In this document: positions 22,088 to 40,531 of the stretch, piece after piece
How positions within the stretch are numbered: position 1 is the first letter of the stretch
Layout of the letters: each line of letters opens with the position of its first letter
Assembly (NCBI GenBank): GCA_947649355.1
Contig: CANSRG010000002.1
Location: 1-61,823, forward strand
DNA from: an uncultured Mycoplasmatota bacterium
GTDB taxonomy: Bacteria > Bacillota_I > Bacilli_A > RF39 > UBA660
Direction: 5' to 3'
DNA: 61,823 nucleotides
Position numbers and translations under genes: made by a program
The notes under the pieces: model-generated
What the model saw: the letters and a program-made list of their open reading frames with translations, nothing else
Database searches by the model: none
Told to the model about the DNA's origin: nothing

Positions 22088-22150
22088 AGGATGTAATATT
22101 TCCTTTTTTTTCTTTTTCTTGTATAATTTTGGTTAGAATAGGGTGATACT

Positions 22151-24085
22151 ATGTTTGGAAAAATTTTATATATTAGTGATAATATTGCTTTTATTGAAAA
22201 TAAAATGACAGAAGATGTTGGAGCAGATTTATTAAATCTTCATTTAGTGTTTGAGCAAGGGGAGCATAAAGTATTAAGTGAGATTACAGAAATTAAAGAT
22301 GATGAAATTCGTGTAAAGTTTTTAGGTGAGTTTGTCGATGGTCATTATCGTAATGGTATTTTAAGAAAGGCTAGTTTATCTAGTACTATTCGACCTATAA
22401 AACCAGAAGAATTGATTTTGTTAGTTGGAGAGCAATCCAAACAAAATTTTGTGTTAGGTCAAAGTGCTACTTATAAAGATGCTTTAATATGTCCTAATAT
22501 TAACGATTTATTAGCAAGTCATTTTTGTATTTTTGGAAATTCAGGTGCTGGTAAATCTTGTGGTGTCGCAAGAATTGTTCAAAATCTTTTGTCTAATAAA
22601 TTTTCTTTAGCTTATAATGCAAATTTATTGTTTTTTGATTCTTTTGGAGAATATAAAACGGCTTTTAATAGTATCAATACTATTAACCCTTATTATAGTT
22701 ATAAATTTATTACTTCTCGGATAAAAGATAATGATGATCAACTTATAAATATTCCTATGAATTTACTTAAAGTAGATGATTTGGCAGTATTACTTCAAGC
22801 GGATAAGCATTCTCAGTTAACTATTATTGACCGTGCAATGCAGTTAGCTAAAATCTTTTCTTTAGATACAACTGATTCTCATCGTTATAAAAATAATATT
22901 ATTGCAAGTGCTTTAATTACTGTTTTATATAGTTCTCAAACGACAGATAAGAAAAAAGATGAAATATTTCGCATTATAAATACTTGTCATACTCCTGAGT
23001 TTAATTTAGATACTGATATTCCAGGTGTTGGTTATACAAGAACTTTTGCAGAATGTTTTCAAATTGATTCTCGAGGAAAATTTGGAGAAGAAGTGTTAAT
23101 TACAGAATATATTTTGAAATTTATTGATGAATCTTTAATTATAGATGCAAATTTAAATACAACAACTTTTACTTTGAATGACTTTTCAAAAGCGCTTGAT
23201 TTTGCACTTATTAGTGAAGGATTTCAAAATAATCAAAATTTACTGGATGATGCTCAGTTATTAAAGGTTCGTTTATATTCTTTAATTCATGGTCCTGTTG
23301 GTAAGTTATTTACTGGTGATAAAGTTATTACTCCTGGGGAATTTATTACCTCTTTAGTAAGTAATAATAATAAAAAAGCTCAAATTATCAATATCAATTT
23401 GGAAGGGTTAGATGATGCGGTTTCTAAATCTATTGTTAAAATTTATTCTCGTTTGGTTTTTGATTTTTCAAAAGATAATGCAAATCGAGCTACAATTCCT
23501 TTTCATTTATTTTTAGAGGAAGCACATAGATATGTTCAAAAAGATAATGATGTATTTTTACTTGGATATAATATATTTGATCGTATCGCGAAAGAAGGAC
23601 GTAAATACGGAGTATTACTTGGCATTATTTCACAAAGGCCGATGGAAATTAGTGATACTGTTATTGCTCAATGTTCAAATTTCTTGATTTTTAAAATGAC
23701 ACATCCAAAAGATATTAAATATATTGAAGAAATGCTACCTAATATTAGTCAAGATGTTATTGAGAAAATGAAAATTTTACAACCTGGTACTTGTGTTGCT
23801 TTTGGAAGTGCATTTAAGATTCCAATGATTGTTAAACTTGATATGCCAAACCCAAGGCCTTATTCTTCTTCTTGTGATGTGTCGACTTACTGGGATTCTA
23901 AGACTGATATTTCTGAAGGAATTTCTAAAGAAATGATGGGAAATCAATTTGGGGCGATGAATACTAGTGTTGCAGTTTCTCAGTTAGAAAGCGGTTCTGT
24001 AGATATGGGAATTCCTATTAAAAAAGAAGAAGTGGTTGTTTCTGAAAATAAATTTTTAAGTTCAGATGATATTGAAACTTTGTAA
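22151..24085 (+). CDS. HerA/FtsK-superfamily (DUF87-type) P-loop ATPase, orphan
   Basis: 644 aa. N-terminal beta-barrel-like segment, Walker A GNSGAGKS (~22535-22558), Walker B FHLFLEEAHRY, and HerA-like ISQRPMEISDTVIAQCSNFLIFKM. Own extended -10 TGTATAAT at 22120-22127. No NurA, Sir2 or other usual partner gene adjacent. Confidence 0.75.
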   Translation: MFGKILYISDNIAFIENKMTEDVGADLLNLHLVFEQGEHKVLSEITEIKDDEIRVKFLGEFVDGHYRNGILRKASLSSTIRPIKPEELILLVGEQSKQNFVLGQSATYKDALICPNINDLLASHFCIFGNSGAGKSCGVARIVQNLLSNKFSLAYNANLLFFDSFGEYKTAFNSINTINPYYSYKFITSRIKDNDDQLINIPMNLLKVDDLAVLLQADKHSQLTIIDRAMQLAKIFSLDTTDSHRYKNNIIASALITVLYSSQTTDKKKDEIFRIINTCHTPEFNLDTDIPGVGYTRTFAECFQIDSRGKFGEEVLITEYILKFIDESLIIDANLNTTTFTLNDFSKALDFALISEGFQNNQNLLDDAQLLKVRLYSLIHGPVGKLFTGDKVITPGEFITSLVSNNNKKAQIININLEGLDDAVSKSIVKIYSRLVFDFSKDNANRATIPFHLFLEEAHRYVQKDNDVFLLGYNIFDRIAKEGRKYGVLLGIISQRPMEISDTVIAQCSNFLIFKMTHPKDIKYIEEMLPNISQDVIEKMKILQPGTCVAFGSAFKIPMIVKLDMPNPRPYSSSCDVSTYWDSKTDISEGISKEMMGNQFGAMNTSVAVSQLESGSVDMGIPIKKEEVVVSENKFLSSDDIETL

Positions 24086-24147
24086 AAAAGCTTTAATAGT
24101 AAATGTTCTTTTATTAGAAAAAAGTTCTTTTTTTCTTTTTTTTTTCA

Positions 24148-24156
24148 TGTTATACT
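24148..24156 (+). promoter_or_regulatory. extended -10 element upstream of the T7SS-like operon
   Basis: TGtTATACT 33 nt upstream of ATG 24189, after a long T-rich tract. No clear -35. Confidence 0.4.
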
Positions 24157-24188
24157 GGATATATAAAATAGGAAAAGGGGTTAGAGTT

Positions 24189-24428
24189 ATGTCACAATAC
24201 AAATGTCCTTTTTGTGGGAAAGACATTCATCCTGGAGATCAGGTTTGTCTTTTTTGTGGAAAAAAAATTCCTAATGTTACTATGACAATTCAAGATTTAA
24301 ATTCTAAAAATAGTATGAATATAACCACCAAAAAAAATAAAACAATTTTTTATTTATCTGTTAGTTTAGTATGTGTTATGATTTTAGTTTCATTTCTCAT
24401 AGTATGGTTTGGTATTATAAAGGGGTAA
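24189..24428 (+). CDS. zinc-ribbon, single-pass membrane protein (first gene of the T7SS-like operon)
   Basis: 79 aa from ATG 24189 (RBS AAAGGGG). CPFCGK...CLFCGK zinc ribbon and a C-terminal TM FYLSVSLVCVMILVSFLIVWFGII. The ORF-track start 24066 overlaps the upstream gene. Confidence 0.6.
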   Translation: MSQYKCPFCGKDIHPGDQVCLFCGKKIPNVTMTIQDLNSKNSMNITTKKNKTIFYLSVSLVCVMILVSFLIVWFGIIKG

Positions 24429-39778: not shown

Positions 39779-39781
39779 TAT

Positions 39782-40108
39782 ATGAACGTAAAAACAAGTT
39801 TATCTGAATTTGAGTGTTATAATAATAAGGGAGAAAAAATTGATTCTATAGAAAAACAATTGAAAGAACGAGAAATTACTTTTTCGGATGTATTAGAAGT
39901 AGGGGATATTATTAAAAGAAAGAATTCTAACATTTTTTATAAAATACAAGTTGTTCATTATGAAATTTTGGGTGTTGGATATTTTGATTATGCTGGGAAT
40001 ATATGTAATGAACTTGGAGAAAATGATGAAAATAATTCTAATTTATATTTTTTTAATCAAGTAGATATTGATTATAAAGTAAATTTATGTGAAAATCGAA
40101 CTAGATAA
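39782..40108 (+). CDS. small cytoplasmic protein, candidate immunity factor for the toxin C-terminal module
   Basis: 108 aa, starting 4 nt after the toxin stop. No signal peptide or TM. The function is assigned by position only. Confidence 0.35.
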   Translation: MNVKTSLSEFECYNNKGEKIDSIEKQLKEREITFSDVLEVGDIIKRKNSNIFYKIQVVHYEILGVGYFDYAGNICNELGENDENNSNLYFFNQVDIDYKVNLCENRTR

Positions 40109-40126
40109 TAAGAAAGGAAAATAGAT

Positions 40127-40489
40127 ATGAAAGAAAAATTTTTACCAGTAGGGAGTATAGTACTTTTAAAAGGTGCTACTAAGAGAGTTATGGTTGCTGG
40201 ATATCTTGCAATTGATAATCAAAATAGGGATATTGTTTATGATTATAGTGGCTGTATGTATCCTGAAGGTTTTTTAGGAAGTGATCAAACGTTACTTTTT
40301 AATCATGATCAGATAGATAAAATTTATTTTGATGGATTTCAAGATGAAGAACAAGATAGTTTCTTGAAAAAATTAAAGGATATTTCAGAAGAATTAAAAA
40401 AAGAAATTTCTTCTATTGAGAAAAAAGAAGTAATCATTCCAGAAGATATTAAAAAGCAAGCTATTGACACTTTGCTAGAAGAAGAATAA
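40127..40489 (+). CDS. DUF4176-like T7SS-associated small protein
   Basis: 120 aa. LPVGSIVLLKG....VMVAGY......YDYSGCMYPEGF......LFNHDQIDKIYFDGFQDEEQ matches my recollection of the DUF4176 signature. Confidence 0.55.
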   Translation: MKEKFLPVGSIVLLKGATKRVMVAGYLAIDNQNRDIVYDYSGCMYPEGFLGSDQTLLFNHDQIDKIYFDGFQDEEQDSFLKKLKDISEELKKEISSIEKKEVIIPEDIKKQAIDTLLEEE

Positions 40490-40531
40490 AATTTAGACTA
40501 TATGTTTAAATTTTTTTTTAGGAGGAATTTT

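Follow-up and report, generated by a model that had tools for sequence, protein, structure and literature searches.

Considering that the Firmicutes' type VII secretion system (T7SS), T7SSb, is the closest well-studied relative of the locus described here, its requirements are our starting point. EssA, EssB and EsaA are essential in Staphylococcus aureus and Bacillus subtilis, and the FHA domains of T7SSb EssC dock on EssB (PMC11217815); YukD assembles YukB with YukC (PMC12637312). Bacillus anthracis secretes a WXG100 protein without EssA, EssB and EsaA, and Garrett, Higginson & Palmer (2024) described eight further arrangements, T7SSc-j, without these three proteins (PMC11217815). Their survey covered RefSeq only, and the word stem 'metagenom' is absent from its text. 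As to the exported toxins, PMC9600955 states that LXG-type toxins require small helical partners for export, and DUF4176 is reported to stabilise an LXG toxin (PMC12482557). The locus in question lies between metG and tatD in a stretch of 61,823 nucleotides, hereafter the window (contig CANSRG010000002.1, assembly GCA_947649355.1), from an uncultured Mycoplasmatota bacterium. A preliminary description had read it as a locus for type VII-like secretion in which EssB, EsaA and EssA are missing.

We found that EssC and a WXG100 protein are indeed present at this locus and that the three parts were not found. The reading that we prefer, at a probability of about 0.65, is that positions 24.1-40.5 kb represent a functional type VII toxin-export cassette, whose reduced architecture would be characteristic of an uncultured, low-GC lineage of gut Bacilli. 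The calling of open reading frames (ORFs) recovered, each at its place, the eleven plus-strand genes that had been listed between metG and tatD. Their products are a HerA-like ATPase, a 79-amino-acid (aa) protein with a Zn ribbon and a transmembrane (TM) helix, a YukD-like protein, EssC, four small helical proteins, a 2784-aa toxin, a 108-aa protein and a DUF4176 protein (Table 1).

EssC and the absent membrane proteins

The best solved match of EssC was B. subtilis YukB (9qks), with E = 1.6e-117 for the single sequence and 1.8e-148 for the profile; it also matched TIGR03924 and TIGR03925, in both cases below their cutoffs. Its hydrophobic segments form two TM helices (residues 263-281 and 299-317), and the Walker A motif GTTGSGKS is intact at residue 710. 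The FHA signal was weak (PF00498, E = 0.0012, 19.6 bits vs a cutoff of 20.7, residues 112-171), and close homologues carry precomputed PF00498 matches. The family profile gave a weak match to the Ki-67 FHA domain and no alignment with the FHA region of YukB, the alignment between EssC and YukB beginning at about residue 225.

As had been stated before, no ORF of the island resembles EssB, EsaA or EssA, none of them matching the corresponding NCBIfam or Pfam models. No ORF of EssB-like build (about 450 aa, central TM helix) was found anywhere in the 61.8-kb window, nor was any of EsaA-like build (about 1000 aa, polytopic). The 3484-aa ORF at 46970-57424 is not EsaA; it is an M26-peptidase/dockerin surface protein of a separate mobile element. 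TM helices were predicted in two island proteins only, the 79-aa protein and EssC. EssA had no model match in the island, where the sole small TM protein (79 aa) matches Zn-ribbon models only.

Related loci were reached by three routes: exact protein look-ups, an EssC-centred metagenome scan (80 loci) and a HerA-centred genome scan (80 loci). Their neighbourhoods, with 7-10 kb of flank available per locus, were analysed by tblastn and by calling the ORFs around essC, all of which were clustered and screened for TM helices. Full-length relatives of EssC number in the hundreds (273 hits); the homologues listed are 42-75% identical and, two partial sequences (P0068, P0079) apart, have 1518-1559 aa. 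Clade A comprised 23 loci, a few duplicate assemblies included, with EssC at least 48% identical to that of the window; clade B comprised 77 loci with 37-47% identity. By clustering, EssC was present in 21 clade-A and 74 clade-B loci, the 84-aa YukD-like protein in 21 and 65 (86 of about 100 next to EssC), and the ~98-aa WXG-like protein in 16 and 45 (61 loci in all). The corresponding numbers were 16 and 3 for the ~218-aa WXG protein, 10 and 0 for the ~138-aa protein, 12 and 0 for the Zn-ribbon protein, and 19 and 1 for HerA. EssC, the YukD-like protein and the ~98-aa WXG-like protein are near-universal, and the other four families mark clade A.

This synteny survey of essC homologues bore out the earlier observation, EssB, EsaA and EssA likewise not being found in the roughly 100 related loci. 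Besides EssC and the Zn-ribbon protein, no conserved TM family was seen near essC in loci of clade A or clade B. TM neighbours that recur in sub-groups were an HtrA-type protease, FtsH, RecD2, Ig-domain surface proteins, a protein with a weak zincin-like match and two proteins without family match; EssB, EsaA and EssA were not among them. At the level of the locus, the three proteins are not part of the machine. Since the layout of EssC, YukD and WXG protein without them is kept in about 100 loci, with intact genes and EssC diverged down to 37% identity, it is a property of the lineage and not an accident of the contig. Its recurrence therefore marks a real variant of a known system.

The same evidence bears on the idea that the cassette is a decaying, non-functional T7SSb remnant. 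Three parts that S. aureus and B. subtilis require were not found (PMC11217815), as decay would have it; however, conservation across the lineage with intact, full-length genes makes decay very improbable. The ORFs carry no frameshifts or truncations, the Walker motif of EssC is intact, the same reduced gene set is kept to 37% EssC identity, and the toxin modules are in active turnover. Another possibility is a canonical T7SSb with a split locus, in which essB, esaA and essA lie elsewhere in the genome. In its favour, the model of the Firmicute EssC equivalog is passed by EssC, which has retained an FHA-like N-terminus whose T7SSb counterpart binds EssB (PMC11217815), and the view is limited to the 61.8-kb contig. 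Nevertheless, no such genes occurred within 7-10 kb in about 100 related loci from many genomic contexts, and the FHA region fails to align with that of YukB even by profile. We therefore consider a split locus unlikely.

A sister-clade T7SS locus was also observed in a closed 1.49-Mb genome (L002, positions 3132-9882; OW818670.1, GCA_942493215.1). Upstream of essC lie one YukD-like gene, four genes for WXG100 proteins and three for paralogous toxins with an HExxH motif (424-460 aa). An immunity-like gene of ~82-93 aa follows each of two of these toxin genes, and no other membrane protein is encoded.

Accessory proteins, candidate substrate and toxin

Table 1. Features of the metG-tatD interval and its two flanking genes, in window coordinates
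Feature	Position	Strand	Evidence
metG (methionyl-tRNA synthetase), left flank	20465..22087	+	PF09334, E = 7e-115
HerA-family hexameric ATPase (DUF87), 644 aa	22151..24085	+	PF01935, E = 1e-18
79-aa bitopic protein, N-terminal Zn ribbon and C-terminal TM helix	24189..24428	+	Zn-ribbon Pfam matches; TM residues 59-77
84-aa YukD/EsaB-like protein, presumed ubiquitin fold	24431..24685	+	PF08817, E = 8e-4, full length, sub-threshold
EssC, 1532 aa, membrane FtsK/SpoIIIE-type multi-domain ATPase	24701..29299	+	TIGR03928, 990 bits vs cutoff 778
Terminator-like hairpin, essC end	29289..29314	+	11-bp stem then T run; consensus match only
214-aa fused tandem WXG100 protein	29417..30061	+	PF06013, 31.3 bits vs cutoff 27.3
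Terminator-like hairpin 3' of tandem-WXG gene	30089..30117	+	12-bp stem then T run; consensus match only
98-aa WXG-like helical protein, W-Q-G	30246..30542	+	Weak WXG100 matches; ~98-aa family
98-aa helical protein, no WXG motif	30553..30849	+	Blastp-linked cluster shared with 30246-30542; WXG100 E = 0.15
185-aa helical protein, third in conserved small-protein block	30846..31403	+	Tblastn, no family match
2784-aa multi-domain polymorphic toxin (predicted)	31424..39778	+	PF03496, E = 4e-16; PF01966, E = 3e-8
108-aa candidate immunity protein	39782..40108	+	Linkage to HD domain in L111
DUF4176 protein (T7SS toxin-associated)	40127..40489	+	PF13780, E = 1e-28
tatD, right flank	40532..41281	+	PF01026, E = 1e-71

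The Zn-ribbon protein carries the pattern CxxC...GDQxCxxC; when four clade-A orthologues were aligned, neither the GDQ nor any of the four Cys varied. Called mechanically, its ORF begins at 24066, inside the end of the HerA gene; the orthologue alignment favours a start at 24189 (MSQYKCPFCG). The gene was found in 13 of the 21 distinct clade-A loci, directly 5' of the YukD-like gene except in L166, where tatD lies between them, and it was missing from the other 8 and from every clade-B locus. The clade-A loci without it are a sub-clade with the order toxin-YukD-EssC-218-97-96-140-HerA, as well as L167, L168 and L169. The preliminary description had suggested that this protein might replace EssA or EssB. 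Because only about 60% of the clade-A loci carry it, it is an accessory and no obligate substitute. A 63-aa Zn-ribbon/TM ORF near L008 and L129 was rejected as an orthologue, having no GDQ motif and lying beside an 873-aa polytopic (P-type-ATPase-like) ORF.

The YukD match of the 84-aa protein reached 20.6 bits against a cutoff of 27, and 14 of the 71 members of its family matched YukD (PF08817), the best with E = 8.5e-6. Its single-sequence AlphaFold 2 (AF2) model had a pLDDT of 41 and was unusable.

The first half of the 214-aa protein contains the motif W48-K-G, and the W-x-(x)-G turn of the second half is conserved in 21 homologues. In its AF2 model (pTM 0.65), helices 10-47/51-94 and 129-163/170-210 are arranged as two hairpins with a disordered linker between them. 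Foldseek returned generic or de novo four-helix bundles only, which fits the fold and is not diagnostic. The gene follows essC in 16 clade-A loci. The protein is a candidate for the core EsxA-type substrate and would be a built-in pseudo-heterodimer. Bracketed by terminator-like hairpins, its gene is possibly a separate transcription unit; a promoter scan gave matches not above the shuffled background.

Among the small proteins further downstream, the second 98-aa protein (30553-30849) and the 185-aa protein had no family match. By tblastn, the 185-aa protein matches a protein of 124-156 aa at the same position in about a dozen clade-A loci. The ~138-aa family at that position has 10 members, and the window protein falls outside this cluster.

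The toxin contains an ADP-ribosyltransferase (ART) domain at residues 2363-2483, which is C3-like (match to 1ojq), and an HD domain at residues 2575-2693. Its N-terminal ~115-330 aa recur in proteins whose C-termini differ and whose lengths run from 120 to 5100 aa, including a 287-aa PemK-domain protein and a 1551-aa protein with ART and HD domains, and its internal modules recur separately, shuffled among other T7SS loci. Residues 1-300 gave no LXG (PF04740) match although E values as high as 5 were admitted, and ten relatives of the N-terminal domain had no LXG match either. The layout is in the style of LXG toxins, with three small helical genes upstream, the 108-aa and DUF4176 genes downstream, and variable C-termini; DUF4176 occurs in 14 related T7SS loci. 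In L111, a homologue of the 108-aa protein (35% identity) is encoded 3' of a homologue of toxin residues 2544-2768, the HD part. Because the pair of HD domain and 108-aa protein recurs there, the latter is likely the immunity protein of the HD domain.

The HerA-like ATPase and the limits of the cassette

The closest PDB matches of the HerA-like protein were the HerA structures 9c1m, 8xau and 8ziq (E = 7e-42 to 1e-28), and it has a Walker A motif, GNSGAGKS, at residue 129. Against equivalog models it scored 163 bits, the cutoff being 850. The preliminary description had counted its gene as part of an inserted island. This did not hold: the order metG-HerA-tatD was found in the T7SS-less loci L006, L013, L014, L016, L017 and L030, of which L006 is the closest species-level genome, with a HerA 84% identical to that of the window and no T7SS. 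The HerA family spans at least 7999 homologue clusters, far more widely than the EssC clade. HerA was found in 204 species-level genomes and is 57-84% identical across 80 of them (L006-L085). Elsewhere its neighbours are tatD (by tblastn), gatCAB-sized ORFs or rplU-ysxB-rpmA (by reading the sequence), all without EssC. Three ~96-aa genes 5' of HerA in L064, L066 and L072 were rejected as WXG genes, being read as rplU, ysxB and rpmA. Since T7SS-less relatives carry metG-HerA-tatD and the family spans so many clusters, the gene is a lineage-wide resident and not cargo of the cassette. NurA, Sir2 and DUF4297 families had no match among the scanned window proteins, the neighbours of HerA in the window being metG and the Zn-ribbon gene. 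In the relatives, too, HerA stood in housekeeping contexts and no nuclease, Sir2 or DUF4297 partner gene was seen.

The gene content reported for the 18.4-kb island at 22088-40531 was thus retained, and its left limit was not: because T7SS-less relatives also have HerA between metG and tatD, the cassette proper extends over ~24.1-40.5 kb.

Even so, HerA and EssC lie together more often than a random arrangement would have them. In the EssC-centred, unbiased loci, HerA adjoins clade-A EssC in 7 of 10 (L001, L003, L005, L088, L129, L168 and L169). L167 has a T7SS without HerA within 10 kb, and L086 and L166 are indeterminate, a giant toxin gene running off the stretch. In clade A overall, the adjacency holds in 19 of 23 loci, across at least six flanking contexts and in all four arrangements: upstream in the same direction, downstream with the 218-97-96-140 block in between, divergent as in L005 and convergent as in L169. 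HerA also adjoins clade-B-type EssC in L015 and L144. The adjacency is not random and may reflect either a functional partnership or a very conserved gene that serves as recombination anchor or hot spot. Literature searches returned no report of a link between HerA/DUF87 proteins and T7SSs.

These counts also favour the view that secretion involves the HerA-like ATPase as an active component, a cytosolic hexamer that unfolds or feeds substrates like EccA of T7SSa or TsfV of T7SSf. We regard this role as rather doubtful. The breadth of the family and its housekeeping contexts without EssC speak against it, and among 40 loci with 57-63% HerA identity, none had EssC within the available flanks. 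In L005, moreover, HerA is better conserved than EssC (69% vs 49% identity), and the T7SS of L167 lacks a HerA neighbour.

The metG-tatD gap of L015 (1316-11842) was found to hold a 463-aa zincin-like gene on the minus strand, an EssC 37% identical to that of the window, YukD, six ~100-aa genes and HerA. Because of this divergent EssC type, the same site beside HerA is seen to be occupied by two divergent T7SS clades.

metG is 72-77% identical in relatives. The ORF of tatD is open from 40502 on, with MFTDTHCH, its conserved start, at 40532 (junction compared with L006, L013 and L017). The GC content of the island (0.24-0.31) does not differ from that of the flanks, no flanking direct repeats longer than 9 nt or att sites were found, and the cassette contains no integrase; signs of a recent foreign origin were not seen.

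The start of the window lies near the replication origin, with ORFs of the size of dnaA, dnaN, gyrB and gyrA (assigned by size), and the cumulative GC skew climbs throughout. The gene order is similar to that of B. subtilis: an mfd-sized ORF (assigned from its L001 orthologue), spoVT-like, metG, then tatD, ksgA, yabG, veg, spoVG, yabP, yabQ, divIC and tilS, sporulation genes being part of it. Related contigs are, without exception, metagenome-assembled genomes of gut origin, both animal and human, and go by labels such as uncultured Bacilli, 'Tenericutes', 'Mycoplasma sp. CAG:776', Ca. Caccenecus and Ca. Ventrenecus. A wall-less lineage that needs no EsaA was rejected as an explanation, as genes for Mur ligases, PBPs, sortase, SpoIVA and YabP/YabQ/DivIC occur in the window and related loci.

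Downstream of tatD, the yabE position is occupied by a protein of 184 aa (41315-41869) that has a TM helix at its N-terminus and no Pfam or NCBIfam match; the stretch from tatD to ksgA showed no rnmV-like gene. Further on, yabG (42768-57767) houses an integrative element of ~14.7 kb. A diverged 5' fragment of yabG, a 94-aa ORF at 42768-43052, lies 3' of ksgA, its similarity stopping after '...VLHID'. The element encodes two serine recombinases of the large type (43431-45020 and 45007-46572) and the 3484-aa surface protein, in which the M26 IgA1-peptidase N-terminal and dockerin domains were recognised. Full-length yabG follows downstream at 57502-58281. Insertion seems to leave the gene intact because the element supplies a yabG 5' end itself.

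Proposed mechanism and comparison with known systems

Based on T7SSb work, from which the mechanism is drawn, we propose that EssC would form an oligomer in the membrane via its two TM helices and act as motor and probably as channel. The 84-aa YukD-like protein would bind EssC and promote its assembly, like YukD of B. subtilis, with the Zn-ribbon single-pass protein as an optional membrane accessory. The 214-aa double-WXG protein would take the EsxA role as core substrate. The three small helical proteins may bind the N-terminal helical domain of the toxin and so create a composite export signal; the DUF4176 protein may stabilise the 2784-aa toxin, and the 108-aa protein would neutralise the C-terminal HD domain in the producer. 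The HerA-like ATPase, a lineage-wide gene, would have a function of its own, the cassette recurrently lying beside it.

Several points weigh against a functional toxin-export cassette of this kind. It is known here from its genes alone, and the absence of EssB, EsaA and EssA is seen at the scale of the locus, the window and the flanks, which leaves the unlikely case of distant genes discussed above. EssC keeps an FHA-like region, and EssB, on which these domains dock in T7SSb, was not found. The YukD assignment of the 84-aa protein of the window is sub-threshold; a 71-member YukD-like profile searched against PDB sequences found no YukD chain and chance matches only. Finally, the dependence of the toxin on the T7SS is read from gene context, because its N-terminus gave no LXG match.

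A more far-reaching proposal is that the locus is an undescribed T7SS subtype, next after T7SSc-j and at home in uncultured gut Bacilli with small genomes, in which EssC and the YukD-like protein would be the whole membrane machine, the Zn-ribbon single-pass protein optional, the fused tandem WXG protein the EsxA and HerA a recurrent functional partner. We put it forward tentatively, as a possibility that stands well short of even odds. If true, this would make it the simplest T7SS in nature with the capacity to export ~320-kDa toxins. The composition of the Firmicute T7SS channel, including the proteins required beyond EssC, is unsettled, and a core of EssC, YukD-like and WXG proteins beside giant polymorphic toxins would be a compact system to try in reconstitution and structural studies. 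Systems for contact-dependent antagonism would also be common in an abundant, uncultured gut lineage overlooked by RefSeq-based surveys. The adjacency of HerA would be informative either way, as a clue to an extra cytosolic motor or as a conserved gene that anchors cassette exchange.

Compared with T7SSb of B. subtilis and S. aureus, the locus shares a Firmicute-type EssC with adjoining YukD-like and WXG100 proteins, and a polymorphic toxin accompanied by genes for small helical partners, for a DUF4176 protein and for an immunity-like protein. In contrast to T7SSb, EssB, EsaA and EssA are lacking at the locus and in about 100 related loci, and the FHA region has diverged so far that it does not align with that of YukB. 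Whereas the EsxA of T7SSb is a homodimer subunit of ~100 aa, a fused tandem WXG protein of ~215 aa is encoded here. There is also an extra Zn-ribbon single-pass protein, and the toxin N-terminus is not detected as LXG.

The HerA-NurA repair system and the Sir2-HerA and HerA-DUF4297 anti-phage systems share the DUF87/HerA core, anti-phage HerA being the best structural relative by sequence. They differ from the HerA of this locus, which is lineage-wide, stands in housekeeping contexts and scores far below the equivalog cutoffs.

With T7SSc-j, the locus has in common an EssC-type ATPase, a WXG100 protein and a ubiquitin-like protein without EssA, EssB and EsaA; some of these variants also have small single-pass proteins (TsdH, TseK) or extra cytosolic ATPases (TsfV), and T7SSg is comparably simple. 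Family scans of the island proteins found none of the T7SSc-j markers TsxD Ser/Thr kinase, TsxF PPM phosphatase, TscE vWA, TsxJ DUF6382-FHA, TsgL DUF5050 propeller, TsfV TadZ-AAA+, EspG-like TsxG and Ig-rich envelope protein TsxI. Conversely, the locus has a Zn-ribbon protein, the word 'zinc' being absent from PMC11217815, and the components described there include no DUF87/HerA neighbour and no fused tandem WXG protein. Judged by gene content as PMC11217815 describes it, the arrangement matches no T7SSc-j subtype and is set apart from all of them. The novelty that the preliminary description had implied for a T7SS without EssA, EssB and EsaA must be narrowed accordingly: such variants are published, the one of B. 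anthracis being functional (PMC11217815). Because T7SSc-j and the B. anthracis system are on record, the principle is known, and what this locus adds to the published descriptions is the Zn-ribbon single-pass protein, the fused tandem WXG protein and the HerA neighbour.

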